Shown here piece by piece: positions 21,931 to 56,939 of a stretch of 64,000 nt of DNA. A program made the translations under genes and the position numbers. Origin of the DNA: Planctomycetota bacterium (GTDB lineage Bacteria > Planctomycetota > UBA8742 > UBA2392); assembly GCA_020425695.1 (NCBI GenBank), contig JAGQRE010000002.1:5829-69828 (forward strand), written 5' to 3'. Numbering within the stretch: position 1 is the stretch's first letter; every line of letters begins with the position of its first letter. The notes under the pieces were generated by a model. The model was not told the DNA's origin. It saw nothing but the letters and a program-made list of their open reading frames with translations, and searched no databases.

Positions 21931-22020
21931 TTCCAACGCCGCCCTTCGCCATTTGCTGGGCTTATGCGTATCAAGTAGCCGATATAGTGGCAGCCCTGAC
22001 TGACCCCTGCTGAACGCCTG

Positions 22021-25266: not shown

Positions 25267-25298
25267 TCACGAAGACTGCCCTGCTCTAAGCGTCGCCC

Positions 25299-25817: not shown

Positions 25818-25867
25818 GGCGCGGCTCCGCGAGATCGGGTGTAATCTTGAGTCTAAACAAGGTGGGT

Positions 25868-26722: not shown

Positions 26723-26791
26723 GCTTTCGCTGCTGCCGCCCGCTGTTCGTACTACAGTCGGAGCCGTACCCTAGCTTTCACGAGCCTTGCC

Positions 26792-29607: not shown

Positions 29608-31037
29608 ACACGACGCTTCTGGCTCTGCTGGTCGGCACAGTGCTGGTCGTAACTGCATGCCAGTCAAGTGGCGTGGATACGGTGGACATTTCCCCACCGC
29701 ACGAATACCAGTTCGAAAGGCGACAAGGGCGGCGCACGCCGGTGATCCTGATCCCCGGGACACTCGGCAGCCGGCTCTACAACACCGAAAACGGCGAGAT
29801 CGCCTGGGGTAACTTCTCGGCCACGATCTCCGAGCTCCAGGACGAGCTGGACCTGCCGATCGATCGCCCTCGCCTTACCCAGAACCGCGACAATCTGGCC
29901 GCCTACCGAGTCCTCGACCGGGCCGAGATCCTCCTGAAGGAAGGCAGCGGCGAAGTCAGTTTCTATGCTGAGTTGATTGACCATCTCAGCCAGACACTCG
30001 GCTATCGTCCGGCCTACGGCAAGCGTTTCCACCGCGGGCACGACCTGTTCGTCTTCTTCTATGATTGGCGACGCAGCAACGTCGAGGCCGCCACGCAACT
30101 GCGCGAGTTTATTGAAAGCATCCGCCGCGACCTGCGCCAACCGAAGCAGAAGTTCACCTTCCTGGCGGTTTCCAACGGGGGGATGATCGCCCGCTACTAT
30201 TTGCGTTACGGCGGTCGCGACGTCGTCACCGGTCATGAACTGGATGAGCCACTGAACCCGAACTGGAACGGGCTTCAGGATTGTGAACGGCTCATCTGCA
30301 TGGGCACGCCCCATGTCGGAACGATTGACGCGCTTCACCTGATTCACGACGGCTATGCGCCGAACGTTCTGGCGCGGCGCTATCCGCCGGCCACGATCTT
30401 CAGTTTCCCTGCCGCGTTTGAGTTGATGCCGGAACCCGGTGAGCCGGTTTTCGTCGGTGAAGGCGGTGAGTCACTCGACATCGACATCTGGGACTCCGAC
30501 ACCTGGGAACAATACGGGCTGTCGGTGTTCGCTGAGTCGCAACAGGACCGTTTGAAGGGTGAGATCGCGGAGACGGTTCGCCCCGGCGAAGACCGCGATG
30601 TGTTGTTCAACCAGCGCATGAACGATCAGCGGGCGTACCTCGAGCTTGTCTTGAAACATGCGCATCGCTTCCGCGACGCGATTGCCGGCGAGCCGGGCGT
30701 GCCCACGGAGGTCATACTGGGCGTGAACACCCCGACACTGGCCAGAGTCGGGCTCGTCCGCGATGGCGAAGACTGGCAGCTGTTCTTCCGCCCCCGTTTT
30801 CCGGGCGGGCGCTACGACCCGATGGCCGAGGCGATCTATGCCAGCGGAGACGGCGTCGTCACGCGACGCTCAGGGCTCGGGCTGCCGTTGCCGCAAAGTT
30901 CAGCCGAGTTGCTTGACCGCGGCGACAATTTCCGCCGGGCTCTTTCGTCCTGGACATTCACGCCGTTCTCGCACCGCGAAATGTTTGACGACCAGATGCT
31001 GCGACTCACTCTTGCCGAGACCTTGTCCGAGCCCTAA
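29586..31037 (+). CDS. lipoprotein, LCAT/PGAP1-like alpha/beta-hydrolase (putative lipase/acyltransferase)
   Basis: Lipobox LVVTAC. PVILIPGTLGSRLY resembles the LCAT-family N-terminal motif. The nucleophile-elbow variant is LAVSNGGM. Confidence 0.55.
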   Translation: MAVSQKLNTTLLALLVGTVLVVTACQSSGVDTVDISPPHEYQFERRQGRRTPVILIPGTLGSRLYNTENGEIAWGNFSATISELQDELDLPIDRPRLTQNRDNLAAYRVLDRAEILLKEGSGEVSFYAELIDHLSQTLGYRPAYGKRFHRGHDLFVFFYDWRRSNVEAATQLREFIESIRRDLRQPKQKFTFLAVSNGGMIARYYLRYGGRDVVTGHELDEPLNPNWNGLQDCERLICMGTPHVGTIDALHLIHDGYAPNVLARRYPPATIFSFPAAFELMPEPGEPVFVGEGGESLDIDIWDSDTWEQYGLSVFAESQQDRLKGEIAETVRPGEDRDVLFNQRMNDQRAYLELVLKHAHRFRDAIAGEPGVPTEVILGVNTPTLARVGLVRDGEDWQLFFRPRFPGGRYDPMAEAIYASGDGVVTRRSGLGLPLPQSSAELLDRGDNFRRALSSWTFTPFSHREMFDDQMLRLTLAETLSEP

Positions 31038-31091
31038 CCTCGCCCCGTAAGACGCCGATTGGGCGTCTGTATTCATGTAGTGAGCAAAGCC

Positions 31092-32363
31092 ATGCCGACT
31101 ACCGCCATTCTCGGACTCCAGTGGGGCGACGAGGGCAAAGGCAAACTTGTCGATTCCGTAAGCGCTCGGCAGGACTTCTGCGTGCGCTTCCAAGGCGGCG
31201 GCAACGCCGGGCACACGGTCTACCCCGAAGGCAAGAAGATCGTTCTGCACCACCTGCCGACCGGCGTTCTGCACAAAGACTGCGTAAACGTAATGGCGCA
31301 GGGCATGGTGATGGACCCGTTCAAGCTGCTTGAAGAGATCGCGGAAGTCGAGGCGCGCGGGCTGAAGCTTGATGGGCGCCTGTTCATCAGTGATCGCATC
31401 GCGATCACGACCCCACTGCACCTGACGCTTGATGTTTCACGCGAAGCCGGCGACGTCGCCAACCAGATCGGCACCACCAAACGCGGCATCGGCCCCACCT
31501 ACGCGGACAGGTACGACCGTGTAGGGCTGCGCATGGCTGACCTGCTGGATGAGGTTTCCCTGCGTGAGGCCCTGCAGCGCACCCAGAACGTGCGCGCCTG
31601 CCAGACAACCGACGACGCGCCGAACGTAGAGAGCATGCTGAAGCCATTGCTCGAAGTCGGTGAGAAGCTGCGCAAGTACGTCGCCGACACCTCGCTTATG
31701 CTGGCCGAGGCCATGGCTGAAAACAAAAACATCCTGTTCGAGGGTGCGCAGGGCGCGATGCTGGACGTGGTTCAGGGCACGTACCCTTACGTGACCTCAA
31801 GCTACACGACGGCGGCCGGCATCCCCGCGGGTGTAGGGCTCGCACTTTCGGTTGAGAAAGTCATCGGCGTCACCAAGGCCTACTGCACCCGTGTTGGTGA
31901 AGGCCCGTTCCCCACGGAGTTGACCGACGAAACCGGCAACAAGTTGCGAGAGGCCGGCGGCGAGTTCGGCGCGACCACAGGGCGCCCGCGCCGCTGCGGC
32001 TGGATCGACCTGTTCGCGCTGCGCTACGTTTGCCGAATCTCCGGCGTTACGCACATCGCGATCACAAAACTTGATGTCCTGTCAGGATTTAACGAGTTGA
32101 AGGTAGGCGTGGGTTATGAGGGGCACGACGCGCCCGGACTACCGGCCGACATCCGCAAGTTCATCGCGCTTAAGCCAAAGTACGAAACGCTGCCGGGCTG
32201 GAAGGACGACATCAGCAAGGCAACCAACGCCGCCGACCTGCCGGACAACGCCCGCGCCTATCTGCGCTACGTAGAAGACTTCGTCGGCGTGCCGATCGGC
32301 ATCATCAGCGTAGGTCCCGAACGCGAAGCCAGCTTCGAAACCGACGGCGCACCCAAGGGTTAG
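31092..32363 (+). CDS. purA: adenylosuccinate synthetase
   Basis: GLQWGDEGKGK P-loop, GTTKRGIGPTYADR and GATTGRPRRCGW. The start is taken at ATG 31092. Confidence 0.95.
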   Translation: MPTTAILGLQWGDEGKGKLVDSVSARQDFCVRFQGGGNAGHTVYPEGKKIVLHHLPTGVLHKDCVNVMAQGMVMDPFKLLEEIAEVEARGLKLDGRLFISDRIAITTPLHLTLDVSREAGDVANQIGTTKRGIGPTYADRYDRVGLRMADLLDEVSLREALQRTQNVRACQTTDDAPNVESMLKPLLEVGEKLRKYVADTSLMLAEAMAENKNILFEGAQGAMLDVVQGTYPYVTSSYTTAAGIPAGVGLALSVEKVIGVTKAYCTRVGEGPFPTELTDETGNKLREAGGEFGATTGRPRRCGWIDLFALRYVCRISGVTHIAITKLDVLSGFNELKVGVGYEGHDAPGLPADIRKFIALKPKYETLPGWKDDISKATNAADLPDNARAYLRYVEDFVGVPIGIISVGPEREASFETDGAPKG

Positions 32364-32401
32364 TCAGCCTGGGGCCCCACATCTGCAGCCTCAGGCTAGA
32401 C

Positions 32402-33256
32402 CTAGCGGTTTTCCTCGGTTTCGACTTCGCCTTCGATGGGCGCCAACGGCCACGCAACAAAAGTTGGTCCGTCACGACCGTCATCTGTGCTTGCCCGGTC
32501 AAGGGCGTCCAGGACGATAAAGAGTGCACCCCATGGCAAGTCGTCCTCGACAGCAATGAGGATGTCTCGTACAATCCCGGGCCGCCTTCCTGTAGTTCGC
32601 TTCTCCGATTCCTGAAGCGATCGAGAGAGTTCAGCCGCCGCAGTCTGCCAGATTGCGGAGTTCCAATCGCCGCCATCGAGTTCGGACAGCTTCAGGGTCG
32701 CCCCTTCTATTGACTGCTGGTCCTCGGGCGTAAGCCCGATCGCGAACTGGATGGTCCCGTTGGACACCGTGACCGCCAAGTGGAGTGAGTTGTAGAAGTA
32801 GGATAGGCCTTCGTCGCGCGGAAGCTCTACCGGTACCCGCTCTCCTCTCGCCGACACCAGATGGGCCTCAACGCGGTAAAGCAAGTGCGAGACTAGCTGC
32901 TCGGCGGCTTGCAGGAACCACATAGCAGGCGCATCTGGTGGTGCGGTAAAAATGACAACATTGTGGCTAACACCATCCACGTCCCGGCCAGTAAGCCCGA
33001 CGCGCTCATCAACAACTTCTGCGAAATCACTAGTCGCTTTTCGAAGCGAATCTACGTCAGCTGAAGTGCAACCTCCGTTCAGGAACCAGTTGTACGCGCC
33101 GTTCTCCTTCCTGACGTCAATGCGCAGCGGCTTGGTTACCGGCGCGGCGGTCTGCTTAGCTACACATGCACCAAGCAGGATCGCAGTTACCAAGAAGGCA
33201 GTAGGCAAACGCAGGAGCATAGGGTCTACAAACGGTGCCGGAGGGGTTTCGTTCAC
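32402..33256 (-). CDS. hypothetical lipoprotein
   Basis: The internal Met at 33220 gives MLLRLPTAFLVTAILLGAC (lipobox). No recognisable domain. Confidence 0.5.
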   Translation of the reverse strand: MNETPPAPFVDPMLLRLPTAFLVTAILLGACVAKQTAAPVTKPLRIDVRKENGAYNWFLNGGCTSADVDSLRKATSDFAEVVDERVGLTGRDVDGVSHNVVIFTAPPDAPAMWFLQAAEQLVSHLLYRVEAHLVSARGERVPVELPRDEGLSYFYNSLHLAVTVSNGTIQFAIGLTPEDQQSIEGATLKLSELDGGDWNSAIWQTAAAELSRSLQESEKRTTGRRPGIVRDILIAVEDDLPWGALFIVLDALDRASTDDGRDGPTFVAWPLAPIEGEVETEENR

Positions 33257-33390
33257 CTTGTCAAGGCAAAGAAACTGGCAAGGCGCTTGCGAGCGTACGA
33301 ATTTAGGGTTTTCCGGGATGTCACAGCGGGTGGTTTGCGTCTAGAATGTAGGGGCTCAGTGGTTTCGCAATTCGCGTAACCCTACCAGGA

Positions 33391-33624
33391 GTGATGATGG
33401 CGGCTACCATTCGCAAACTTTCGCTTAGCTTCCCACAGAAGCTGATCCGCGAGCCGATCCTGCACAACATTTCGACGCGCTTCGGCGTTTCGTTCAACAT
33501 CCTTCGTGCCAACGTGACTGACGAACTGGGCTTTCTTGAGCTTTCGCTTGAAGGCGACACCGAGTCGCTTGAGAAAGTGCTTGAGTACCTGCGCAGTCTC
33601 GCCGTGACGATTGAAGAGTCGTAG
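33391..33624 (+). CDS. NIL-domain small protein
   Basis: 77 aa. REPILHNISTRFGVSFNILRANVT..GFLELSLEGD resembles the NIL (MetN C-terminal-like) domain. Confidence 0.55.
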   Translation: MMMAATIRKLSLSFPQKLIREPILHNISTRFGVSFNILRANVTDELGFLELSLEGDTESLEKVLEYLRSLAVTIEES

Positions 33625-33693
33625 CACTCGAGGCTCGGGTGGCTTTCTCCCCTGATTGACGGTCAGGTGAAGCACTCTATCGTTCATGACTAC

Positions 33694-33770
33694 GCGCCCG
33701 TAGCTCAGTTGGATAGAGCGGCGGTTTCCGGAGCCGCAGGTCAGAGGTTCGAATCCTCTCGGGCGTGCCA
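33694..33770 (+). tRNA. tRNA-Arg (anticodon CCG), CCA encoded
   Basis: Hand-folded. Acceptor GCGCCCG/CGGGCGT (terminal G1-U72 wobble). D arm GCTC-AGTTGGATA-GAGC. Anticodon arm GCGGT-TTCCGGA-GCCGC gives anticodon CCG. T arm AGAGG-TTCGAAT-CCTCT. Then G73 and CCA. Confidence 0.9.
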
Positions 33771-35315
33771 GACTTGATGAAGGTCGTCGGAATCGGCTCC
33801 GGCGACTTTCTTTTTCTGCCACTCGGCGTTTGTAAGTCGCAGCGCTTCAAAGGGTTGCTCAAGCTCGACCTTCAACTCACCGTCCTCGAAAGTGCAGTTC
33901 GAACACAGTAGTTGAAGCATCTTGCGCTTCTCTACCGCATCCTGCTTCAAGAACAGCGTGTGGGCCTTCTTGGCTAGTTCGAGCAGTTGAACGCCCTCCT
34001 CGACGAAGTCCTCGCTTGCCTGCTGGTGTTGCTCGATCTTCGCGAGTAGCTCCTCCTGCTCTTTGCGCCACTTCTCCTGTAAGCGCATGCAGCGGTCCTC
34101 CGTGAGCTTGCCTTCGAGGTAGTCCTCGTAGGCTCTGTCCGCTCGGGTCTCAAGCTTGGTGTACTCCGCCTGCAAGCGGGCGAGAGAAGCCGCATGGAGC
34201 TTCTTCTTGTGGGCTTGGCTCTGCTTGAGTCCATCGGCAACAATGCGCAGGATGTCCTCGCCAAAGTCGAGTTGGCGAAGGACGCCTGCGAAGACCTTGT
34301 CCAGTTCCTCTTCACGGAAGCGCATCTTCTTTCCGGGGCCTTTGTGCTTGCCACCGGGCGCATAGTAGCGGTATTTGCCGCCTTTTTTGGCATCGCCGAC
34401 GAACTGGCGGCCCGACGCAGCGTCCTGAATCAGGCTGTTGTAGGCGAAGAGGTGTTTGCGCTTGACCGACTTCTTGCCCTTGCTGTTGCGCTTGTCTCGG
34501 GCTTCCTGAGCGCGGTGCCAGAGGTCTATGGAGATGAGCGGTTCATAGACGCCATCTATCAACTTGCCGCCCCACTCGAACATGCCGGTGTACATTCTTC
34601 GGTTGAGGATTAGGGCGACAGACGGCGCGCAGAAGGGCTTGTCTGTCTTCGGTGAACGCCAGCCGTGCTCATCCGCCATTCTGCCAATCTCGCTCATCGA
34701 GTAGCTGGCCGTCGCGTACTGCTGAAACATCCACTCGATCATCGGCGCGTACGTCGGGTCAGGAATGATGATGTTCCTGCCCTCCTCGCCCCGAACGTTG
34801 GCGTATCCAATGGGCGCACTTGTCGGCCACATGCCCTCGTCGGCCTTCTGCCTCATGCCTTTCTTGGCCTCCATACTAAGGTTGTCGCTGTAACGCTTGG
34901 CAATCGCAACGTGGATCGTGTGCATGAACGTCTTGTCCGTCGAGACGCCGGGACTGAGCACCTCGCCCTCGCGGACCAGATGCAGACATGCACCGAGTTG
35001 GTCCACCTTCACGAAATCGACGAGGTTGCGGTAAAGGCGATCCGTCTTTTCGGCTAGGATCGCAGGTGCAGACTCAGGTCGCTCGCTCACGAACTGGAGC
35101 ATGTCTCCGAATGCCTTGCGACCGGCGACTTTCGCGCTTTCAGCTTCGACAAACTCCCGCAGAACGCAGAAACCATTGGCCTTCGCATAGTCGCGAAGCA
35201 GTTTCAACTGAGCCGCGACCGAGTAGCCCTCTGACTGCTGCTCAAGCGTGCTAACACGTGCGTAAATGACGGCGGGCCGCTTCGCGGCGTCGTCAGGTTG
35301 AGGATGGGTTTTCAA
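33741..35315 (-). CDS. large serine recombinase (integrase)
   Basis: 524 aa. Resolvase-type catalytic domain AVIYARVSTLEQQSEGYSVAAQ...EKTDRLYRN, a recombinase domain, a ribbon region without cysteines and a long C-terminal coiled coil. TTG start with agggag SD. The last 10 codons (WHAREDSNL*) are the reverse complement of the tRNA-Arg T-arm/acceptor. Confidence 0.9.
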   Translation of the reverse strand: MKTHPQPDDAAKRPAVIYARVSTLEQQSEGYSVAAQLKLLRDYAKANGFCVLREFVEAESAKVAGRKAFGDMLQFVSERPESAPAILAEKTDRLYRNLVDFVKVDQLGACLHLVREGEVLSPGVSTDKTFMHTIHVAIAKRYSDNLSMEAKKGMRQKADEGMWPTSAPIGYANVRGEEGRNIIIPDPTYAPMIEWMFQQYATASYSMSEIGRMADEHGWRSPKTDKPFCAPSVALILNRRMYTGMFEWGGKLIDGVYEPLISIDLWHRAQEARDKRNSKGKKSVKRKHLFAYNSLIQDAASGRQFVGDAKKGGKYRYYAPGGKHKGPGKKMRFREEELDKVFAGVLRQLDFGEDILRIVADGLKQSQAHKKKLHAASLARLQAEYTKLETRADRAYEDYLEGKLTEDRCMRLQEKWRKEQEELLAKIEQHQQASEDFVEEGVQLLELAKKAHTLFLKQDAVEKRKMLQLLCSNCTFEDGELKVELEQPFEALRLTNAEWQKKKVAGADSDDLHQVWHAREDSNL

Positions 35316-43001: not shown

Positions 43002-43138
43002 GTGCAGACGGCAAGGACGCTTCGAGGATCACCTTGAAGCGTCCATTCCGGTTTAACTGTGCAGACGATTCTGGCCACAACACGGCATTCCGGTTTAAAT
43101 CGGCATCTCGTTCGGGCAGAAAACGCCATTCCGGTTAA
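43002..43138. repeat. iteron-like direct repeats
   Basis: cattccggtttaa occurs at 43044 and 43086, and cattccggttaa at 43127 (spacing 42 and 41 bp). The first and third copies are followed within 2-3 nt by gtgcagacg (43059) and gtgcaagcg (43140); a further gtgcagacg lies at 43002. Non-coding gap between ardC and the FG-GAP gene. Confidence 0.6.
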
Positions 43139-43204
43139 AGTGTGCAAGCGCTTTCGTGCCCCGAATCGAGTCGCGCCGCGAAAGCGCTTTCGCGAGGGCA
43201 GGGC

Positions 43205-44098
43205 TTATGCCGCCCTCTTGAGCATCGCTTCTGGAGCCGCCTCCGCTTCCTGACTCGATTCGTTGGCCGTGTTCAGAATGTACTCCGCAGCCTTCTGGCC
43301 TTGGGCTGCGCCGATCACCAGCGCCTTGGAGTTGCCCCTCAAGAAGGACTTCCAGTGCGCGATGTATGCCGCGTTGTTCTCGATGACCGGGCGTTCTATC
43401 CCTGCCTCAGTAGACAGGAACGAAGCGCAGAACTCGGCGACCAACTCCTCTTGGCTGTACTCGTGGCGCGTGCGGAAGGAGTCCGTCACAGCCTTGCGGT
43501 TCAACCGACTCTCGTGGCCCGTGGAGTGGCCAAGCTCGTGAAAGGCGACGTTGTAGAACTCTTCGGCGCGGTCGAAGTATCCCGGCTCCGGCAACGTGAC
43601 AGTGTCCCGACTTGGCGAGTAGAACGCCCCGTTTCCACCGTAGCTGATGCGCGGGCGTATTGGCATGTCGTCGAGGATGCACTGAGCCGACTTGATAGGA
43701 TCAAAGAGCTTGGGCTTGCGTCCGGGCAGCGCCGGGGCTTCCACTCCGTCACACTGCTCGACGTTGAACACGGTGTAGTAGCGCAGGATGAAGGACTGGC
43801 GGGTCTCGCCGGTCTCCTTGTCCTCGACCTCGATGCGCTTCCAGAACACGCATGGCCAGCCCTTCTCGCCCTTGCGCACGTTGCCTCCACACTTCTGCGC
43901 TTGCTTGTACGTGGCCCAGAAAGGCGAGCCGTAGGGAGCGCTACCAAGCAGCGCCACGTTGACGCCGCGATAGAGCTTGCCGGTCACGAGACTGGTGGGC
44001 ATGAACTCCGGTGCCGCCCAAGTCTTGCGCCACGGCGGCGTGCCCTGCTCAAGCAGGTTCAGAATCCGTTCGGTAACGATCTCGTAGACGGTAGGCAT
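43205..44098 (-). CDS. ardC: ArdC-like antirestriction protein (ssDNA-binding N-domain + zincin metallopeptidase domain)
   Basis: Internal Met start MPTVYEIVTERILNLLEQGTPPWRKTW (ArdC N-domain/DUF1738 signature). The C-terminal motif is FHELGHSTGHESRLNR. Confidence 0.85.
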   Translation of the reverse strand: MPTVYEIVTERILNLLEQGTPPWRKTWAAPEFMPTSLVTGKLYRGVNVALLGSAPYGSPFWATYKQAQKCGGNVRKGEKGWPCVFWKRIEVEDKETGETRQSFILRYYTVFNVEQCDGVEAPALPGRKPKLFDPIKSAQCILDDMPIRPRISYGGNGAFYSPSRDTVTLPEPGYFDRAEEFYNVAFHELGHSTGHESRLNRKAVTDSFRTRHEYSQEELVAEFCASFLSTEAGIERPVIENNAAYIAHWKSFLRGNSKALVIGAAQGQKAAEYILNTANESSQEAEAAPEAMLKRAA

Positions 44099-44337
44099 GG
44101 CAGTCCTCCTTTCGGACGCCGTATCAGGAAAGCCGCAAGCGCGGCACAGAGAGCGCGGCCTTTGGCAAAGTTGCTGTTCGGGATTGAGGTTCGCGGTGAG
44201 GTGTCGGGCGGGGCAAGAGTTGCCGAAGTGCCCGGTCACCTGAACCAATAGAAGTATAACCTTTATGCTGGCCGAAATCGACTGAGTCGTGGGTTTATTT
44301 TGGTATTACTTTTATTCGGAACGGCTAGAGTCAGGTC

Positions 44338-46096: not shown

Positions 46097-48628
46097 ATGC
46101 GAAAGCGCCTGCTGCTTGCAGTGCTTGTTGGTCTTATGCTGGCTGGCTGCGCTGGTGAGGACGATGGTGGAGGGGGTTCGGGTGGCGGCGGTGGGTCTCC
46201 GACAGGGAACATCTCTGGCACGATTACCCCCTTCAACGAGTACCCAGTTGTCACGGCGGCAGAAGCGACCGACTCTACGACGGCCAGCCCACTTCAAGTC
46301 GCAGGTCCGAAGGCAGGCGAGTTGCTATTCGTCTTGGGAACCCTCTCTAGCTCTGGCGGAGACACATCGGACCGCGTGACATTCACCGAAGGGAACACCG
46401 CGACATACAACGTGAAAATCAGTTGGCTTGACGGAACCAATCAGGATGTGGACCTTACGGTCAGTCGATTCGACGGAACTACCACGAACCTCCTCACACT
46501 AAACGGCACAACCAATCCCGAGTTCGGTAACTTCGCCGTAACGGGAGGTGCGGGCGCGACGATCATCTTCGACATCACTCTCTTCTCCGGCACGAGCACA
46601 CAGTGGCGGATGGACGTAACCGTTCTATCCGGTAGCCCGTCCAGTGTTCGCCCGCCGTTCCCCGACTATCCAAAGACCGAGTACGATCCAATGGAAGTCG
46701 CAGTTGAAGGTCAGGATGCTGTTCCCGACCGCCTGCTAGTTACTTTCGAAAAGAACGTCTCCACCCAAATGCAAGCTGACCTCTTAGCCCTACACGGCCT
46801 CGCCGCAGCACGAACCCTCAGTGGAGGAGCCGTAGTGGCAGAACGCTTGCAGCCGACCTCAACGGACCCACTCCACTCCGCAGTTTCCCACCTCGTAGAG
46901 TTGGCGAATCTGTCGGCCCACCTTTCGATGCACCCATACATTACAGTTGCCGAACCGGACTACATTCGCCGTCACTTCCTGACTCCAAACGACCCGCACT
47001 TCGCCGCGTATCAAGCTTGGCACTACAACGCCATCAATCTTCCTGCGGCGTGGAACATCACCACCGGTTCAACCTCTGTCATCGTCGCCGTTGTTGATAC
47101 AGGCGTCGTATTGAGTCACCCGGACTTGGCAGGCAGATTGATAGGTGGTTACGATTTCATCTCGAATCCACAAGTTGCACTTGACGGAAACGGCATCGAC
47201 AACAACCCGGATGATCCCGGCGACAATCCGGGGCAAGGCTCTTCGTTCCACGGCACTCATGTGGCTGGAACCATAGGCGCGGCGTCGAACAACTCGACTG
47301 GTGGTGCAGGCGTAGATTGGAACTGCAAGCTCATGCCATTGCGCGTACTGGGAGCAGGCGGAGGAGCCGACAGCGACATAGCTGAGGCAGTTAGGTACGC
47401 AGCACGCTTGACGAACGCGAGCGGCACATTGCCACCCAACCGAGCAGACATCATCAACATGTCGCTCGGTAGTCCGGCAAGCACGACAGTCTTGGCCAAT
47501 GCGATTACCGCTGCAAGTACAGCAGGATGCACGCTGATCGCCGCAGCGGGGAACAACGCACAGCAAGGGAATGCGCCCAACTTCCCGGCCTCGTATGCGG
47601 AGGTCATTGCGGTTGGCGCTATCAACCGAAACTATGCCCGCGCGGTGTACAGCAACACCACCAGTGGCACGACTGTTTGTGCACCCGGTGGAGAAACAAC
47701 GTTCCCATTCTCCACGCAGGACGGCGTCCTTAGCACTTGGCGCGACGACACGGCGACACCTGCTGTGAACAAGTACCAATGGCAGCAGGGTACTTCGATG
47801 GCTTCACCGCACGTGGCTGGTGTTGCCGCCCTGATGCTCGCAGTCAACCCCTCTCTCACTCCAGCCAACATCCGAACTATCTTGACCAGTACGGCATTGG
47901 ACCTTGGCACGTCAGGGTACGACGCCGAGTACGGGTTTGGACTCGTGCGTGCAGAAGCAGCGTTGATCGCAGCGGGAGGCACACTCCCAGCCAATCCGCC
48001 AACGGCAGCCGTTACTAACAACATCGTCCTTGTTCCGTCCGGAGCAGCGACTGCCTACACGAGCGTGGTGAACATCGGTGGCGGGACGCTCTCTGTGAGT
48101 AACCCTCAAGCGTTTCACTTTGGCACGGAGAGTTGGCTCGGCGTTTCGCTGCAACAGAACGGGACGCAAGTGCTTGTGGTGCTGAGCATCAATCAGGCCC
48201 AACTAACCACGGGAAACCTCTACTATGCAGTTGCCACGGTAGACACGAACGACTCCAGCGCGCCCGTCGTCCCGATTGCCGTGCTAGTTAACAAGCTGGC
48301 ACCGAAAGCCGTAACGTATCAAGTTCGTGTGCGAGCAGTGGATGTCGCAACGGGGCAAGTTGAAGGCGAAGTCTTCACGGACGCATCTTCGGGGTTTTCC
48401 TACACGCTCTCGGGCCTTGATCCCGCTGACTACTTCGTCGTCGGCTTCGTTGATCGAGACACCAGCGGCTCGCTGACGAACAACGACCTCTACGGAGCCT
48501 ATCCGTCATTTACGATACCTAGCGCAGTGACGGTCACGGGTGGTGCGAACACCACTGGGATCAACTTCCCACTTGAACGACACACCGTTGGGATCACGGC
48601 AGTAGGCTCCGCGCAAGCGGTCCCCTAG
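46097..48628 (+). CDS. secreted/lipoprotein subtilisin-family (S8) serine protease
   Basis: Lipobox LMLAGC. I9-like propeptide. Catalytic triad motifs VAVVDTGV, HGTHVAGTIGA and GTSMASPHVAGVAA. C-terminal beta-sandwich region. Confidence 0.9.
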   Translation: MRKRLLLAVLVGLMLAGCAGEDDGGGGSGGGGGSPTGNISGTITPFNEYPVVTAAEATDSTTASPLQVAGPKAGELLFVLGTLSSSGGDTSDRVTFTEGNTATYNVKISWLDGTNQDVDLTVSRFDGTTTNLLTLNGTTNPEFGNFAVTGGAGATIIFDITLFSGTSTQWRMDVTVLSGSPSSVRPPFPDYPKTEYDPMEVAVEGQDAVPDRLLVTFEKNVSTQMQADLLALHGLAAARTLSGGAVVAERLQPTSTDPLHSAVSHLVELANLSAHLSMHPYITVAEPDYIRRHFLTPNDPHFAAYQAWHYNAINLPAAWNITTGSTSVIVAVVDTGVVLSHPDLAGRLIGGYDFISNPQVALDGNGIDNNPDDPGDNPGQGSSFHGTHVAGTIGAASNNSTGGAGVDWNCKLMPLRVLGAGGGADSDIAEAVRYAARLTNASGTLPPNRADIINMSLGSPASTTVLANAITAASTAGCTLIAAAGNNAQQGNAPNFPASYAEVIAVGAINRNYARAVYSNTTSGTTVCAPGGETTFPFSTQDGVLSTWRDDTATPAVNKYQWQQGTSMASPHVAGVAALMLAVNPSLTPANIRTILTSTALDLGTSGYDAEYGFGLVRAEAALIAAGGTLPANPPTAAVTNNIVLVPSGAATAYTSVVNIGGGTLSVSNPQAFHFGTESWLGVSLQQNGTQVLVVLSINQAQLTTGNLYYAVATVDTNDSSAPVVPIAVLVNKLAPKAVTYQVRVRAVDVATGQVEGEVFTDASSGFSYTLSGLDPADYFVVGFVDRDTSGSLTNNDLYGAYPSFTIPSAVTVTGGANTTGINFPLERHTVGITAVGSAQAVP

Positions 48629-49034: not shown

Positions 49035-50057
49035 ATGGCGCTCAGCATCGGTTACACTGGCCATCGCTTTACTGGGGCACTGGCCCATCACAACAAGCAG
49101 CACAACCTCACAACCAACTGGGGACAGCTAGTATGGTCCGCAATCACAGTAGGGCGACCTAGCCTTGCGGAGGTTGTGAGGTTTGGTCCGTTCTCGCTGT
49201 TCGAGATCATCTATCGCTCTTTCATGCTGTTTGCGAATCTACAACAGTCAGGTTCGCGTCTCATCAAGTCGGACGCCTACAAGAGTCTCGACCCATCTGA
49301 AAAGGGAGCGGTTTCGTACTTCGTTGGCCAAACAATGACGAAGCTGCTGTCAGCCGACCTGTTCGACGTTGACTGGCTGCTTCATCTAGACGTTTACGGA
49401 CGCGGATTGCCTCGTCGATTGAGGAGGGGTAAGAAGCGACCAGACCTCATCGGACTCAATCGAGCGCTCGACTGGCTCGTGGTCGAGTCAAAGGGACATT
49501 CGAATCCTGCTACGAAGGCGCTGGCCGAGCGCGCCAAGTTTCAGGCGCTACATCTTCGCACCATTGACGGTAGCTATCCGTTCCTGAGGTTGGGAGCGGC
49601 AACCTATTTCAGCCGCAGCGGATTCTTGCGGACGATCCTAGTAGACCCCTACGACATACCCGAAGATGCGGAAGACCTCGATCTCGAAGTGGAGGAGTTC
49701 TTTCGCGCCTACTACCGCCTGTTGCTCCACAGGCTGACGGAGTCACCCGGAATTGCGGTCTGGCGCAATCCGATTGCTGGCCGGGAATACCGCTTCGCGT
49801 GGCTCCACGCCGCGAACATGGGTTTCGGCTTGGATGCAGAAATCGCGGAGCGAGTGGAGAGTGAAACCAACCTGTCGGACGGCGTGATTCGGCTTCCCGC
49901 ACGGCGCGACGTAGAGCTTAACCAAAACGCCGTACGCAACGCGGACTTCCCGGAAGCCCCGTCGCACATACATGTAGGTGGTGATGGCTCCATCGTCGTC
50001 TTGGGGCAGAGGTGGCGCGAGAGTGCGATGAGGTTACCCCCTGCTGAACGACGATAA
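49035..50057 (+). CDS. hypothetical protein with PD-(D/E)xK (NERD-like) nuclease motif set
   Basis: 340 aa. DPSEKGAVSYFVGQ (helix Glu), KRPDLIGL (PD) and DWLVVESKGHSN (E-x-K) appear in the canonical order and spacing. The C-terminal ~170 aa are unrecognised. Confidence 0.5.
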   Translation: MALSIGYTGHRFTGALAHHNKQHNLTTNWGQLVWSAITVGRPSLAEVVRFGPFSLFEIIYRSFMLFANLQQSGSRLIKSDAYKSLDPSEKGAVSYFVGQTMTKLLSADLFDVDWLLHLDVYGRGLPRRLRRGKKRPDLIGLNRALDWLVVESKGHSNPATKALAERAKFQALHLRTIDGSYPFLRLGAATYFSRSGFLRTILVDPYDIPEDAEDLDLEVEEFFRAYYRLLLHRLTESPGIAVWRNPIAGREYRFAWLHAANMGFGLDAEIAERVESETNLSDGVIRLPARRDVELNQNAVRNADFPEAPSHIHVGGDGSIVVLGQRWRESAMRLPPAERR

Positions 50058-50102: not shown

Positions 50103-51128
50103 TCAACTCGCGACAACTTCGCAAACCCCATCTAGAGCACCCTTGGTGAAGCCTTTTGCCTGAGCCTCGTCGACGGACGACCACGCGTTGAAGACGAAGC
50201 CTTGGGGTTCTCGCAACTGCTTCGGCACATCGGCGCTAGTTAGTATCTGGCCCGGCTTCGCGTGGTTGCAGATTCGAGCCGCGAGATTGAGCGGCACTCC
50301 AACAACGTCGTAAAAGTCTTCTCCAGCAGACCCGTGTTCGCGCTGCTTGAGAGACAAAACTTCTCCAGTCGCAATCGCCGCGCCTATCCCCGTAGGTGGC
50401 GCGAAATTGAACCCATCGGCGGCGACCTTCCACTCCTCCATGACCGAGATCAGCGAAGACACCGCCTGCTGAATAGCTTCGACGAGGCCCTCCTCACCTT
50501 CGTCGGGCAACCACAAGAACATGCAGCCGTCACCCAACGGTTTCCGAATCACACGACACGGGTCTTCTGGCGTGGAAGAAATGACCACCCGCCAGAACTC
50601 AAGCATTAGTTCTGGAGTGTTGGCGTTTCGGTCCGGCGTTTGATTCAGCCAAGAAGTGAATCCTCTAATGTCGATGAAGGCCGCTACAACACGGCGGGCT
50701 ACGCAATGCAGCGGCACGTCAATGTCCGGTACCGGCCAATCCGGCTGCAACAGATCGTCAAGGTCAACGGGAAACACGGTCACTCTGACTTCTTTGGAAT
50801 CTAGATCGAACTCAGCCTCAAAATCGCATGTTCCCGAGCCCAGTCCTCCCATGCCGTCTTCGTCGCCCTTGGCGTCTTCGAAGTACAAGCTCACCCGGCC
50901 CGGCACAGTCACAACGAACTCATCGCGCCTCGCATCGGTGAAGTCAGGCTCAATGTCGCTAAAGTCGCCTACGCCTTGCCAGCCCGGCAAGTCCGAAATC
51001 CACCCTGAATCCGCACCGTTCAACCAGTCATAGAACGGCTGGAGATCGCCGTCGTCAAACCAGTCGTGTATCCACTGCGGAATGCCGTCATCCGGGCTCT
51101 TTGCTGGTTCAACCTTCCTAGCGGCCAT
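50103..51128 (-). CDS. class III nucleotidyl (adenylate/guanylate-type) cyclase domain protein with unknown acidic/Trp-rich N-terminal domain
   Basis: The C-terminal half carries VAAFIDIRGFTSW (metal Asp 1), PLGDGCMFLW (metal Asp 2), GIGAAIATGEV and VGVPLNLAARICNHAKPGQILTS (Asn/Arg transition-state pair). The N-terminal ~150 aa (IPQWIHDWFDDGDLQPFYDWLNG...) have no recognisable fold. Confidence 0.8.
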   Translation of the reverse strand: MAARKVEPAKSPDDGIPQWIHDWFDDGDLQPFYDWLNGADSGWISDLPGWQGVGDFSDIEPDFTDARRDEFVVTVPGRVSLYFEDAKGDEDGMGGLGSGTCDFEAEFDLDSKEVRVTVFPVDLDDLLQPDWPVPDIDVPLHCVARRVVAAFIDIRGFTSWLNQTPDRNANTPELMLEFWRVVISSTPEDPCRVIRKPLGDGCMFLWLPDEGEEGLVEAIQQAVSSLISVMEEWKVAADGFNFAPPTGIGAAIATGEVLSLKQREHGSAGEDFYDVVGVPLNLAARICNHAKPGQILTSADVPKQLREPQGFVFNAWSSVDEAQAKGFTKGALDGVCEVVAS

Positions 51129-52083: not shown

Positions 52084-52352
52084 CCGCGCGTCCAGTCTTT
52101 GGTCCACTCCCGATACGCCGGGCACTCGTCAAGCGATTCCGCTCCACGCAAAAAAGCAGTGGCGAATCCAGCGTCGCCTCCCACAAGGGGTGCCGCCATT
52201 TGTCCACAAAGAAAAAACAAGGGTTAAACAGGTCCAGTCGTGCATAAGTGCCGTGGCAAATGAACTTAAGGGCACCTCCTTGGAGTTGCCAACTTCTCAG
52301 TGACACCTCTTATCAACCGTTGCCCGATGACTTAATGTGGATAGATTGAGCC

Positions 52353-52440
52353 TGCTGGCGGTGGGACTCGAACCCACAATGAGCCGGGGAAGCTCCGTGG
52401 TTTTAGAAACCACTGCGTCTACCAGTTCCGCCACACCAGC
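52353..52440 (-). tRNA. type-II Leu-like tRNA with anticodon CUA (predicted amber-suppressor tRNA); no encoded CCA
   Basis: Hand-folded from the reverse complement. Acceptor GCTGGTG/CGCCAGC. The D region TGGCGGAACTGGTAGACGC is the tRNA-Leu signature. Anticodon arm GTGGT-TTCTAAA-ACCAC gives C34 U35 A36. The variable region is 19 nt with a 4-5 bp stem. T arm GTGGG-TTCGAGT-CCCAC. Discriminator A73. Confidence 0.8.
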
Positions 52441-52614
52441 AGGGTTGTCAGCGGGCACCAGCGCAATCTGGTGCCCGCAGAACTTAACAGACTAGCATCA
52501 CGCCCTAAGCAAATGCGGCGTGTTGGGGGATTGTGGATTGCGTGCTTTCGCGTTCGCTTTGTAGAAGCCGCGATAAGTGAGCGCGCTTCCCACTTAAGGA
52601 AGCGGAGCGGTGGA

Positions 52615-53592
52615 ATGGCAAGGTCTGATCTCGTCCTGAGCTTGATAGAAGCCGGAGTCAAGGGCGATCAGGCGCGTTTGCGCCGCACGGTCGAAGCATT
52701 GATCGCTGATGAGAGAGCAAAGCAGCACAATGCTCTGGCGGACAGACTAGATCGTGTAATCTCGAAACAGCCAGAGGCAGCAGCCAACGTCATCGCGGAT
52801 CAAATCTCTTCGACCGATTTGTTCAGCGCCAAGACTCCCGAAAGACAGCTAAGCGAACTCGTGCTTCCCAGCCCGATTACGAAGCTCGTCCGGCAGATGA
52901 TAGAAGAGCAACATCGAAGTGAACTACTCAAAGCGTACAACCTCAAACCACGCCATCGTCTCATTGCGGTAGGGCCTCCCGGCAATGGAAAGACCTCACT
53001 CGCGGAAGCCATTGCCTACGAACTTATGGTTCCCCTGATTACATTGAGCTATGAGGGGATCATCGGCAGCTATCTCGGCCAGACGGCGCAACGACTCGGA
53101 CGACTGTTCAGCTTTGTGCGCCAGCGCTCCTGCGTGCTCTTTATTGATGAATTCGATGCGCTGGGCAAGGAGCGAGGCGACCTGCACGAGACCGGCGAAA
53201 TCAAGCGAGTCGTCAACTCCCTGCTGCTCCAGATTGACTCGCTTCCCAGCCATGTCGTTCTGGTAGCGGCGAGCAATCACGAGGAACTGCTTGACCGAGC
53301 GGCGTGGCGTCGGTTTGAGATCAAGATCGATCTACCAAAGCCAACCGTCAAACAGCGAATTCAGTGGTTGTCTCGCCTCAAGAAATCCCTTAAACAGTCT
53401 TTGGGATACGACATTGAGAAGTTGGCAAGAAAGTTAGCAGGTGCAAGCTTCTCTGATCTGGAACAGTTTTCCTTGAACATCAGACGCAGGTACGTGCTGG
53501 AACAACCTCAGAGCAGCCTACGGAAGATTGTCAACTCCGAGCTTTCGACACTTCGCTCACGTAAAGGCCGCTCAAGCACCTCAGGACAATAG
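52615..53592 (+). CDS. classical AAA+ ATPase (IetA-like)
   Basis: ATG at 52615. Walker A VGPPGNGKTSLAEA, Walker B VLFIDEFDALG and second region of homology VAASNHEELLDRAAWRRF. The downstream S8 gene starts 11 nt after the stop. Confidence 0.85.
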   Translation: MARSDLVLSLIEAGVKGDQARLRRTVEALIADERAKQHNALADRLDRVISKQPEAAANVIADQISSTDLFSAKTPERQLSELVLPSPITKLVRQMIEEQHRSELLKAYNLKPRHRLIAVGPPGNGKTSLAEAIAYELMVPLITLSYEGIIGSYLGQTAQRLGRLFSFVRQRSCVLFIDEFDALGKERGDLHETGEIKRVVNSLLLQIDSLPSHVVLVAASNHEELLDRAAWRRFEIKIDLPKPTVKQRIQWLSRLKKSLKQSLGYDIEKLARKLAGASFSDLEQFSLNIRRRYVLEQPQSSLRKIVNSELSTLRSRKGRSSTSGQ

Positions 53593-53603
53593 GTCCTTCG
53601 GCA

Positions 53604-56189
53604 ATGCCAGACGAGCGCCTACCATACTTGGTCTTTAGGAACCTGACGCGAAGTCCGGCGAGAGGTGCTGGCGGGGGCAACAAGAGACCTCCTCGTGAAT
53701 TGTCCACGGCCCAAAGGGCGTCAGTGGCCACGAAGATGCAGCGGCTGGAAGAAGTGACCAATGCTTGGTTACAAGCGTCACCCGCTGGGATGTCTCCAGA
53801 ACGCGTGCTTGTCTTCGAGGTTGCGCATCACATCAAAGACTTCCGTGAGTCCGTTGAGCGCATAGGGATGTCGTGGCTCTTCGAGAGCGCCGGTGAAGAG
53901 AGGGAGCCAAGTGACCAGTTCTATCTGGAAAAAAAGTCCACCGGAAGTCCGTGGACGACATCCGACAGCCCCCTAACTGAGCACTATTACTTTACCTCCA
54001 CCAACGCCAGAGCAGTCCAAGACGTGATCGCGAGATGGCATGACCACGCACGAGGGCGCCTGAGACCACGTCTAAACACAAAGTGGATGGAACTCTTCGC
54101 AATGCTGAAAGACGTGCGCTACTGGTCAGCGCGAGACCGTCTCAGTCACTCCTACGTTCTTGAAAACTGGGCCAGTCGCCTCGAACTGTCGCCACAAGAA
54201 CCCGTGAGAGCGGAAGCGGAGCTTTGGTGGCGAGGAGACCGTCATCAGGACGCAGCCTCTCGATTTGAAGCAAGCGTGGTCGCCAGTGGAGGCAACGTAC
54301 TCCAATTCAGCGTTCGTCCTGAGATCGCCTATCATGCCGCATTGATCGAATTGCCCGCCGACACGGCCCGGTTGGCGATAGACCATCAAGATCGGCTATC
54401 CGAAGTTGCAGCCCTTGCCTGCGAAGACGTCCTACTCTTCCAAGGAGCAGGGCAGACTGCGGCTCCACGAATCGCTGAATCTGGCGAAACATTGCGACGA
54501 GACCGGTCAACCACCACGCCACTTCGATCCGGTTCTCCGGTCGCCGCTGCATTGGACGGCTACCCTCTCGCAAATCATGCGCTGCTCACAGAGCGAATTG
54601 ACGTGCTTGACCCAGACAATCTCGGTGAACTAATCGACCCGGAGTACCGCCTCCACGGAACCGAAGTGGCCTCCGTGATGGTCTGCGGCGAAGGAGTCCT
54701 GCCCGGCGAGACCCTGCAAAACCGGATCGTGATCCATCCCGTTTTGGCACCTAAGGTGGAGGCTTTGGACGGAACCGTTCGCGAGCGACTGCCGGATGAC
54801 CAACTCTCGGTTGACTATATACACAGGGCAATCGTCAATGTTCTCGACGCCTACCCCTCAGTTCGCGTGTTCAACATCTCTATTGGCGACGAAGGGCGTC
54901 ACTTCCTGAAAGCGGTAAGTCCTCTGGCACGCTTGCTGGATTGGATTAGCTGGGAGCGCGGCGTACTGTTCGTCGTGAGTGCCGGTAACTACACCAAGGA
55001 CTTGGAGCTTGACGATGACATCTCAGCGCTAGATGCCAGCGGATTGCAAGCTAAGTCAATCAAGTCGATGTTGGACACAGTGTGGGATCGTCAGGTGTTG
55101 TCTCCAGCCGATTCCGTGAATGCGCTCACCGTTGGTGCGGCAAACTCCGATGGAAGCGGAGATTCATTCAACCTTGCATCGGGACTGGTGCTTCCAATCC
55201 AGAGCATGCACATGGCGAGCCCCCTAAATCGCATTGGCTGGGGATTCAAGGGTAGTATTTCGCCGGAAGTGCTGTTTCCCGGAGGTCGCCAGCCGTATCG
55301 CGCGCCGCTGCCGGGGATCGCAGGCGATGCCGCGAAAAGGCTCACACTGAGCAGGTCCCGAGCGCAACCGGGGTTGCGCGTCGCAACTCCGGGAAGGCAA
55401 GGTCTGACCGACGAAATTGCGTGGGGCCGGGGAACGAGCCTAGCCGCAGCCTTGGCAACGCGGCTCGCCGCGCTCGTCTTGGAGAAGATGGCCGAACTCA
55501 GGGCTACGCGGAGCGAGTTCGCCCAATTAGACGCCCGCCTCGATTTTGTTCTCGCCAAGTGCATGCTAATCCACGGTGCAAGGTGGGGCTCAACGGTGAC
55601 CGATCACTTTGATGATGCCGGGCTGTCGAAGGCCGACCTAGCGAGACTGATGGGGTTTGGCATTGCAAACCCCGAGACTTCCATTGGCTGCTTGAGCAAC
55701 CGCGCAACGGTGATCGCCAGCGGCGAGATAGGAGTAAATGAGCAGCATGACTTTGAGTTCCCGCTACCTCCATGCCTATCTGGTGCAACCGCGACGAGAG
55801 AAGTTGTCGCCTCCTTGGCATGGATGGCCCCCACGAATCCTAACTTTCCGAGCCAGTATAGTTGCGTTCGCTGTGAGGTCATCGGAGTGAAGCGTGGCAC
55901 CGAGTTCCAACTGGAAGAGGACGAAGTCCAGTACAAGAAGTCAAAACTCGGTACGACCCAGCATCGCGTACTCAGGGGCTTTCGGCCAACAAGTGTATTC
56001 GACGACGGCAAGAGCCTGCGCATACGGGTAAAGTGTTTGGAAACTCCAGCACTAGCGGGAGCAGCCTTGGACTTGGAGGAGTTGGCGGTCCCGTATGGCC
56101 TCGCCGTTACAATATCCACAGAAGCTGATCTGCCGATCTACACCGAGATCGCCTCGCGACTAGGCGTTGCACTGCCAGTGAGGCGCTAG
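53604..56189 (+). CDS. cytosolic S8-family serine peptidase with large unknown N-terminal region (IetS-like)
   Basis: 861 aa with no signal peptide. Triad candidates are AALDGYPLANH (Asp), LHGTEVASVMVCG (His) and GRGTSLAAALATRLAA (Ser). The first ~320 aa and last ~200 aa are unrecognised. Confidence 0.8.
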   Translation: MPDERLPYLVFRNLTRSPARGAGGGNKRPPRELSTAQRASVATKMQRLEEVTNAWLQASPAGMSPERVLVFEVAHHIKDFRESVERIGMSWLFESAGEEREPSDQFYLEKKSTGSPWTTSDSPLTEHYYFTSTNARAVQDVIARWHDHARGRLRPRLNTKWMELFAMLKDVRYWSARDRLSHSYVLENWASRLELSPQEPVRAEAELWWRGDRHQDAASRFEASVVASGGNVLQFSVRPEIAYHAALIELPADTARLAIDHQDRLSEVAALACEDVLLFQGAGQTAAPRIAESGETLRRDRSTTTPLRSGSPVAAALDGYPLANHALLTERIDVLDPDNLGELIDPEYRLHGTEVASVMVCGEGVLPGETLQNRIVIHPVLAPKVEALDGTVRERLPDDQLSVDYIHRAIVNVLDAYPSVRVFNISIGDEGRHFLKAVSPLARLLDWISWERGVLFVVSAGNYTKDLELDDDISALDASGLQAKSIKSMLDTVWDRQVLSPADSVNALTVGAANSDGSGDSFNLASGLVLPIQSMHMASPLNRIGWGFKGSISPEVLFPGGRQPYRAPLPGIAGDAAKRLTLSRSRAQPGLRVATPGRQGLTDEIAWGRGTSLAAALATRLAALVLEKMAELRATRSEFAQLDARLDFVLAKCMLIHGARWGSTVTDHFDDAGLSKADLARLMGFGIANPETSIGCLSNRATVIASGEIGVNEQHDFEFPLPPCLSGATATREVVASLAWMAPTNPNFPSQYSCVRCEVIGVKRGTEFQLEEDEVQYKKSKLGTTQHRVLRGFRPTSVFDDGKSLRIRVKCLETPALAGAALDLEELAVPYGLAVTISTEADLPIYTEIASRLGVALPVRR

Positions 56190-56939
56190 TTTGCGGCGCA
56201 CGCGCTGATTTCAATGAGTGCGAACCTGTTCCGTGGGTTAGCCCCGGACGGAGGTAGCCCGGTCACTCGACGGCCACGACGCGCTACAGGCTTATTGTGC
56301 GAGGTCCTGAGCACGACGAGCATTCACTTGGATGCGGCGCAAGTCGTTCGGTATTTTGCTTGTATCTGTATGTTGGTACGGCTTTAGAATTGAAACTGCA
56401 TGGCAACGACAGCGAACATCTTTGCGGTGCTACTGCTTACGGTGATGCCGTACGTGAGGCCGTGCAACTGCGCCGGGTTCACCCTGTTTTGCCAGTGCGG
56501 AGTTAGCGTCGAAGAGGCTGACGACGCCAAGAGTGAACGACGCGACGACGCGGCTCCCGAGCCAATGTGCCCTAAGTGAGCGGATCATTCGCCTGCTCAG
56601 GATGAGCAGGATGGTGAAGGCTCTCCTCGTGACAACCACTCACCGGCCAATCACGACTCTCCCTGCAAACAACCACTGAATCCAGAGCTTGGAAACGGCA
56701 TTGAACTGCCGCAGGTGGTCACGTCGGGCGTTCAGTCGATGCCTTCATCCGTGGCAATACTGACCAGCAGCAGCTTCGCTCTGACTGTTTCGCTGCCACA
56801 GCCGATGAACCCGCGTCCGCCTCCCGAATCCATCGGGCTACAGATAGTTCGTACGACCATCCTCAGAATCTAGGCACCGCTCTCGTTAGCTGGCTTCCGG
56901 CCAGCGTTTGGTGATTTGGTCCCCAATGAGAGCGGACTC

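Follow-up and report, generated by a model that had tools for sequence, protein, structure and literature searches.

A divergent IetAS-type ATPase–subtilase gene pair, a probable toxin-antitoxin and abortive-infection module, on an integrative island of a Planctomycetota bacterium

A stretch of 64,000 nucleotides (nt) from the chromosome of a Planctomycetota bacterium (assembly GCA_020425695.1, contig JAGQRE010000002.1; hereafter the window) was analysed, with a focus on two adjacent genes that encode an AAA+ ATPase and a subtilisin-like protease of the S8 family. According to the profile searches, the pair is clearly a divergent Planctomycetota member of IetAS, a kind of system that is already known. 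In our reading, the two genes would constitute an IetAS toxin-antitoxin and abortive-infection module, carried on an island that exceeds 30 kb and is inserted at a tRNA-Arg gene in the chromosome, and we estimate the probability of this reading at roughly 85%. The toxin-antitoxin and abortive-infection behaviour is carried over by analogy from other clades of the family.

The ietA-ietS pair, its family and its mobile island

The upstream gene, ietA (52615–53592, forward strand), encodes a 325-amino-acid (aa) ATPase of the classical AAA+ clade, the putative antitoxin or regulator, as assigned from the PADLOC and Pfam AAA matches and from an alignment of 77 sequences. A spacer of 11 nt (53593–53603, forward strand; GTCCTTCGGCA), read directly from the sequence, separates it from the ATG start codon of ietS (53604–56189, forward strand). 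The product of ietS is an 861-aa cytosolic S8 subtilase, the putative toxin and effector, as supported by PADLOC, Pfam Peptidase_S8, AlphaFold2 (AF2) modelling and Foldseek. Both genes end with the stop codon TAG, which is located at 53590–53592 in ietA. In the program-made list of open reading frames (ORFs), the frame of ietA extends upstream to a GTG codon at 52471; the ATG at 52615 is the preferred start, and it is supported because residue 1 of this version is where the alignments of the IetA hidden Markov model (HMM) and of 76 homologues begin. The original prediction had described a co-directional pair spaced by 11 nt, and both ORFs were found as described, that of IetS exactly so. Judged against their HMMs, both ORFs are intact and full length. 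The layout of the two genes is consistent with an operon. In a promoter and terminator scan of 52.2–57 kb, the counts were not above those of shuffled sequence. The region directly 3' of ietS (56190–56915) contains no long ORF.

The PADLOC models matched both proteins over their full lengths. Residues 1–319 of IetA aligned with profile positions 1–322 of the 330 in model PDLC04232 (E 2.5e-139), and three more PADLOC IetA models matched with E values of 1e-73 or lower. For IetS, residues 3–859 aligned with profile positions 3–850 of the 855 in model PDLC04233 (E 6.9e-215), and PDLC04234 also matched (E 2.5e-122). Every feature by which PADLOC and DefenseFinder recognise IetAS was present, namely a match to IetA, a match to IetS, adjacent co-directional genes and the location of ietA upstream. 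These full-length matches bear out the original prediction, which had named IetAS and had proposed such an HMM search as the check. From its sequence, the pair is typical of the clade with a long IetS (~855 aa); the PADLOC long-IetS clade shares with it the gene order, the tight spacing, the protein lengths and the conserved residues.

To describe the distribution of the family, relatives were collected with one genome per species, and at least 591 genome stretches were found to carry a related IetS with 29–36% identity to that of the window. They come from Planctomycetota, Pseudomonadota, Chloroflexota, Bacillota, Nitrospirota, Actinomycetota and other phyla. The neighbourhoods were counted in 80 fetched loci (L002–L081). 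In 78 of them, the gene immediately 5' of ietS, in the same orientation, encodes an IetA homologue with 45–58% identity, and the two loci without a visible IetA upstream are cut by contig ends. Clustering of the flanking ORFs of the 80 loci did not reveal a third conserved iet gene. About 17 loci are situated inside type I restriction-modification (R-M) operons (HsdM, HsdS, HsdR), and about 10 inside bacteriophage exclusion (BREX) type 3 operons (BrxC, PglXI, BrxHII, PglZ), in both cases always on the same strand. These R-M and BREX neighbourhoods suggest, indirectly and by analogy with the homologues, a defence role of the long-IetS clade. The IetAS pair is directly flanked by tRNA genes in nine of the 80 loci. 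Among plasmids, 556 records contain IetA relatives, and 373 of these plasmids are conjugative; full-length IetS relatives were found in 77 records. The IetS of the window itself is divergent, with just 30–36% identity to its nearest relatives, as compared with 45–57% for IetA. Its closest IetS has 35% identity in a collection of 5.8 billion proteins, which includes the genome of the 96%-identical relative described below, and an exact-sequence look-up of the window IetS in public assemblies gave no match, the source genome being outside the collections searched.

The boundary of the island was found by comparison with this relative, the metagenome-assembled genome GCA_041398505.1. A sigma-factor protein and PurA of the window have 98% and 99% identity, respectively, to proteins on an 896-kb contig of that genome. 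This contig, L082, aligns with window positions 21092–33770 (12.7 kb) at 96.3% nucleotide identity, and the alignment ends exactly at position 33770. This position is the 3' end of a tRNA-Arg(CCG) gene (33694–33770, forward strand; ARAGORN) and the left junction of the island. Past the tRNA-Arg, the relative carries genes for a NIL-domain protein, CdsA and an acyltransferase, which occur nowhere in the window, and the guanine-cytosine content of the window drops from ~0.61 to ~0.57. Since the similarity of the relative ends at the 3' end of the tRNA-Arg, ietAS is carried as cargo by an integrative island, which exceeds 30 kb and has its right end beyond the window. The pair is accessory and mobile and does not belong to the core genome, because it is missing from the 96%-identical relative and its homologues are scattered over phyla and plasmids. 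A core housekeeping locus, which the original prediction had named as an outcome that would count against it, is therefore not what was found.

Two further genes belong to this mobile setting. The large serine recombinase at the island edge (33741–35315, reverse strand; Pfam Resolvase, E 2.2e-20, and Recombinase, E 4.8e-13) is likely the integrase, judging from these domains; its true start is probably internal, because the listed ORF overlaps the tRNA-Arg. An ArdC-like anti-restriction protein (43205–44248, reverse strand; Pfam ArdcN, E 1.2e-29, and MPTase-PolyVal, E 7.2e-31) is a marker of conjugative or mobilisable elements. A search of 33–64 kb for direct or inverted repeats that could be att-like ends of the island gave only short matches at the chance level. 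The original prediction had placed ietAS between a suppressor-type tRNA and a decayed region next to a metal-resistance cluster, in a typical defence-island context. The tRNA, with its CUA anticodon, and the metal-efflux cluster are there, but the context is that of a mobile island with recombinase, ArdC and copper efflux rather than a typical defence island.

Features of the IetA and IetS proteins

As far as can be judged from sequence, IetA should be competent as an ATPase, with all of the expected elements in place. These are Walker A (GPPGNGKT, aa 120–127), Walker B (FIDEFD, with D178/E179), pore loop 1 (Y153-L154-G155) and a second region of homology (SRH; AASNHEELLDRAAWRRF) that contains the sensor-1 residue N221 and the arginine fingers R232/R233. 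In the alignment of 77 sequences, Walker A, Walker B, the pore-loop L-G-x-T, sensor-1 N221 and the RRF arginines were invariant or near-invariant, and so was the stretch GKERGD...GEIKRVVNSLL; position 153 is variable, unlike the other ATPase motifs. The motifs listed in the original prediction (GPPGNGKT, LFIDEFD and the SRH) are thus all present and conserved. The best sequence matches of IetA in the PDB were the D2 domain of p97/VCP (E 1e-43), VAT, Cdc48 and FtsH, and the sequence and profile searches together placed it nearest to the threading unfoldases p97 D2, VAT, Cdc48, PAN and FtsH. IetA therefore appears, by these motifs and matches, to have every feature of a substrate-threading unfoldase. 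The Pfam AAA match (E 2e-29) starts from residue 118, and the PDB alignments start from about residue 92. The helical N-domain described earlier was recognised, but by these boundaries it measures about 90–115 aa and not ~130 aa.

The catalytic core of IetS (54555–55439, forward strand) contains the triad residues D318 (LDGYPLANH; 54555–54557), H351 (HGTEVAS; 54654–54656) and S612 (GTSLAAA; 55437–55439), together with the oxyanion residue N462 (54987–54989). All four are invariant in an alignment of 51 sequences, and the Asp, His and Ser candidates of the original prediction were recovered without exception. Pfam, which resolves only generic AAA and Peptidase_S8 domains in the pair, covers aa 347–633 of IetS with Peptidase_S8. 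Downstream of the core, a C-terminal beta-sandwich (55686–56189, forward strand; aa ~695–861) was delimited by the AF2 secondary structure and by hhalign to the IetS of plasmid pTiC58. Within this domain, Q786, H787 and C811 (55959–56036) are invariant in the 51 sequences, and R782, G783 and E788 are near-invariant; an R-G-[ST] stretch at about aa 782–784 is also discernible in pTiC58 IetS.

A Kyte-Doolittle hydropathy scan of the full 861 aa did not find a signal peptide or a membrane anchor in IetS. The first 40 aa are hydrophilic, with a peak of 0.68 as a 10-residue mean, and the peak of the whole protein was 1.28 with a 19-residue window. IetS is accordingly predicted to be cytosolic, in agreement with the earlier statement that it has no signal peptide, since neither a hydrophobic leader nor a transmembrane segment was seen. 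The original prediction had named three outcomes that would speak against it, namely the absence of an HMM match, a core locus and an export signal; all were looked for, and none was found.

The AF2 model of IetS was obtained with a predicted local distance difference test score (pLDDT) of 81 and a predicted template modelling score of 0.87. The top Foldseek match of this model was ProN-Tk-SP (3afg), with an E value of 3.5e-18 over 681 aligned columns, and further matches included PCSK9 and pro-Tk-subtilisin (2e1p); the matches span ~560–680 columns with E values from 3.5e-18 to 1e-9. A search of the PDB with the IetS sequence gave no match at E ≤ 0.01, and no IetS structure was among the Foldseek matches. 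Like these pro-subtilases, IetS has an alpha/beta prodomain-like module, a catalytic domain and a C-terminal beta-sandwich. The sequence identity is only 12–16%, and the pro-subtilases are secreted and self-activating, whereas IetS is predicted to be cytosolic, has ~200 extra N-terminal residues and is paired with a separate AAA+ ATPase.

The N-terminal region of IetS (53604–54548, forward strand; aa 1–315) was characterised with two AF2 models, phmmer and hhalign. In both models, a long helix at residues 35–58 is followed by tandem beta-alpha-beta-beta-alpha-beta (ferredoxin-like) modules, and the last module (aa ~200–290) is predicted to occupy the position expected of a subtilase prodomain. 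The isolated region was modelled with a pLDDT of 76; a Foldseek search with this model gave no PDB match at E < 1e-3, the best being generic ACT/ferredoxin-like folds. An exhaustive phmmer search with IetS residues 1–300 yielded 871 representatives. Among the 150 matches listed, the query aligned at or near the N-terminus of each protein itself, and most of these proteins are ~800–890 aa long; the shorter ones were taken to be fragments. Because the matches are N-terminal and mostly of IetS length, the region is specific to the clade and is not shared with other systems. In the models, it looks like a subtilase prodomain with a predicted tandem ferredoxin-like fold. The earlier suggestion that it is a candidate sensor or substrate-recognition module found no support, since Foldseek returned only generic ferredoxin/ACT-like folds and the region looks prodomain-type.

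Proposed function, related systems and alternative explanations

The family has been studied in several other hosts. In pTiC58 and SGI1 (SgiAT), the protease IetS acts as toxin and the ATPase IetA as its antitoxin (PMC5006074; PMC13069673). The founding IetAS of Yamamoto et al. (2009), as cited in PMC8562856 and PMC13069673, was found as a factor in the stability and incompatibility of pTiC58, and the SGI1 homologue promotes maintenance of its island (PMC5006074). Both in mycoplasmas and in E. coli, an AAA-ATPase/subtilisin-like pair behaves as toxin and antitoxin: in JCVI-syn2.0, loss of the ATPase alone is lethal, and in TA132/133 the protease is toxic in several hosts, and the ATPase is required by cells only if they also have the protease (PMC8562856). 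Phage defence requires the protease activity of IetS, an ietA mutant could not be constructed, and defence was also shown for systems tested in E. coli (PMC13069673). A Bacillus cereus homologue has an abortive-infection phenotype and becomes toxic upon expression of yosG of phage SPbeta (10.1101/2022.08.27.505566). The biochemical mechanism was described as unknown in April 2026 (PMC13069673), as the original prediction had also said. Its anti-phage identification of the pair holds; the older role as an addiction toxin-antitoxin of plasmids and islands (pTiC58, SGI1) had been omitted from it.

By analogy with these systems, proteolysis by IetS would be toxic to the cell. IetA, as a hexamer that threads its substrates in the manner of an AAA+ unfoldase, would prevent this toxicity for as long as the ATPase is there, has ATP and is not obstructed. 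We infer that IetA might grip IetS through the clade-specific, prodomain-like N-terminal region and its flexible segments at aa 1–35 and 92–124, and that ATP and the pore loops would allow it to repeatedly remodel IetS or hold it in a zymogen-like, inactive state. If a phage protein blocked or titrated IetA, or if the island and with it the expression of ietA were lost, IetS would escape. The freed protease would then cleave cellular proteins, and either growth would stop before the release of phage progeny or the cells without the element would die. A more specific proposal, drawn from the models, is that the N-terminal ~300 aa of the long IetS are both a built-in inhibitory prodomain and the handle for IetA, so that the pair would be an ATP-fuelled dead-man switch with neutralisation by perpetual unfolding; we offer this tentatively and consider it rather doubtful. 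If it is true, IetS would be armed whenever the activity of IetA dropped, be it through an inhibitor from a phage, through depletion of ATP or because the element is lost, and toxins would be neutralised in a new way, by perpetual unfolding, which would explain the mechanism of IetAS.

Several points weigh against the reading of the pair as an IetAS toxin-antitoxin and abortive-infection module. The top NCBIfam matches are IteA_antiphage NF042959 (E 2.4e-69) for IetA and IteS_antiphage NF042956 (E 1.9e-22) for IetS, but both miss the equivalog cut-offs, with 234.2 versus 510 bits for IteA and 79.3 versus 900 bits for IteS. The IteS_antiphage model has 747 positions, as compared with the 861 aa of the window IetS. 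As these scores are far below the cut-offs, the window pair belongs to another subclade. The identity to the founding proteins is low, with 32% over 256 aa for IetA (E 4e-45) and 24% over 522 aa for IetS (E 4e-13), and in the hhalign comparison of the window-clade IetS with pTiC58 IetS, the first ~300 residues stay unaligned. As a second defence system, the window offers only a weak PycC-like cyclase and no confident candidate. The prodomain-like view of the N-terminal region comes from the order of secondary-structure elements and from whole-chain Foldseek alignments, and the isolated domain had no significant match in the PDB. We found no published experiment on the window locus or one assignable to the long-IetS clade.

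The comparison with the founding pair, which was located at L001 (27874–28860 and 28864–31374), gives the frame for these values. Like the window pair, pTiC58 IetAS consists of an AAA+ ATPase gene directly upstream of that for a cytosolic S8 protease (~840 aa) and is carried by a mobile element. The catalytic and C-terminal domains of the two IetS proteins are homologous; hhalign matched residues 307–859 of the window-clade IetS with residues 287–829 of pTiC58 IetS at a probability of 98.9%. The pTiC58 pair is also below the NCBIfam cut-offs, and the PADLOC IetS models match pTiC58 IetS only at ~1e-25. At least three clades thus make up IetAS, which is a loose superfamily. In E. coli, ietHAS (Liu-DS4) has the same ATPase-protease core as the window pair, plus an SNF2 helicase (PMC13069673). 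No helicase gene adjoins the window pair, and some of its relatives adjoin SNF2 helicases (BrxHII/DrmD-like); these are parts of complete BREX type 3 operons and not of a three-gene iet unit as in ietHAS. Mycoplasma TA132/133 (PMC8562856), compared by its description, follows the same two-gene logic with proteins of 353 and 757 aa.

A serious alternative concerns the main benefit of the locus: the pair could chiefly be an addiction module, which would stabilise the tRNA-Arg island by post-segregational killing, with phage protection missing or incidental. This is what the founding pTiC58 system and the island-maintaining SGI1 homologue would suggest, and it agrees with the location of the window pair on an integrative island with serine recombinase and ArdC that is missing from the 96%-identical relative, with the frequency of IetA relatives on conjugative plasmids (373 of 556 matches) and with the lack of a confident second defence system nearby. 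However, about one third of the homologues of the clade are inside chromosomal type I R-M or BREX operons, which argues for defence rather than element maintenance. We regard addiction as the chief role as possible but unlikely; it follows the same toxin-antitoxin logic and is compatible with defence.

Subtilases are open monomeric endopeptidases and not chambered proteases. This bears on the idea that IetA and IetS form an AAA+ protease like ClpXP, HslUV or PAN-proteasome, which would unfold and degrade phage proteins without suicide of the host. The presence in IetA of all threading elements of proteasome-activating and FtsH-type ATPases and the strict coupling of the two genes would fit such a machine, but the IetS model has no ring-forming architecture, its best matches are monomeric pro-subtilases, and the genetics of other clades describe an IetS that is toxic alone, an IetA that neutralises it and an abortive defence. 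We consider this explanation improbable. A pair of inactive relics hitch-hiking on the island is less probable still. Apart from the region without a long ORF downstream (56190–56915), nothing specific speaks for it, and the ORFs are full length with every family-invariant catalytic and nucleotide-binding residue kept; decay is excluded because the motifs are intact. The least probable explanation is a remnant or analogue of EccA and mycosin of type VII secretion, or a housekeeping pair for protein processing. Weak NCBIfam matches to T7SS_EccA (E 1.8e-7) and T7SS_mycosin (E 2.3e-6) were obtained for IetA and IetS, respectively, but these are far below the cut-offs (30.1 versus 466.65 bits and 27 versus 278.75 bits) and reflect just the folds common to AAA and S8 proteins. 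The hydropathy scan of IetS showed neither a signal peptide nor a membrane anchor, no ESX genes are nearby in the window, and the locus is missing from a close relative and has a scattered occurrence over phyla. With the sub-cut-off scores, no anchor, no ESX neighbours and a patchy distribution, the EccA/mycosin and housekeeping explanations are effectively excluded.

With the IetAS toxin-antitoxin module as the preferred reading, the locus is a further, divergent example, from Planctomycetota, of a system for defence and addiction, and by itself it leaves the knowledge of IetAS unchanged. For work on the mechanism, it is useful that the protease and C-terminal domains are common to the IetAS clades, unlike the ~300 residues at the N-terminus of IetS, that the N-terminal region of the long clade appears prodomain-like, and that the unfoldase machinery of IetA is fully kept. 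The locus is also a clean natural case of IetAS on a tRNA-integrated island with metal-resistance cargo, where stabilisation and phage defence are both plausible.

The adjoining tRNA and other genes of the island

A tRNA gene with a CUA (amber-reading) anticodon (52352–52441, reverse strand) is located 173 nt upstream of ietA in divergent orientation. ARAGORN labelled it tRNA-Pyl, and the Rfam tRNA model matched with 55.2 bits (E 3.4e-10). The tRNA is 90 nt long and of class II. Its D-arm is Leu-like and common to a tRNA-Leu, its variable arm is long, and its discriminator is A73; it could act as an amber suppressor that inserts Leu. Of the 36 long ORFs in the window, however, 16 end with TAG, the commonest stop codon, and both iet genes are among them. 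No convincing TAG-interrupted genes were found in the window, and no exact copy of the anticodon arm was found in viral or metagenome contigs. None of the 10 tRNAs beside homologous IetAS loci has a CUA anticodon. A functional link between this tRNA and ietAS was considered and rejected as unsupported; read-through of TAG would add just 17 and 65 unremarkable residues to the two iet products.

The island carries a second S8 subtilase (46097–48628, forward strand; Pfam Peptidase_S8, E 9.8e-59), a secreted protein of 843 aa with the lipoprotein-type signal sequence MRKRLLLAVLVGLMLAGC, which is unrelated in role to IetS. Beyond ietAS there is a copper/silver efflux cluster that consists of an OEP, a YHS protein, a CusB-like protein and a P-type ATPase. 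Several further genes of the island after position 33770 have no assigned family.

Two convergent genes were recorded between the secreted subtilase and the CUA tRNA. One (50103–51128, reverse strand) encodes a 341-aa protein with the motif FIDIRGFTSW and a weak match to class III nucleotide cyclases and the Pycsar protein PycC (PADLOC PycC, E 7e-5; Pfam Guanylate_cyc, E 0.022). The other (49035–50057, forward strand) encodes a 340-aa protein that has no family match; its PD...ESK-like motif is suggestive of a PD-(D/E)xK nuclease. The two genes could be a signalling defence pair. Beside the gene for the ArdC-like protein, three intergenic direct repeats of 20 nt (CATTCCGGTTTAA...) are located at 43044–43146 with a spacing of 41–42 nt, and they look like iterons or operator sites.

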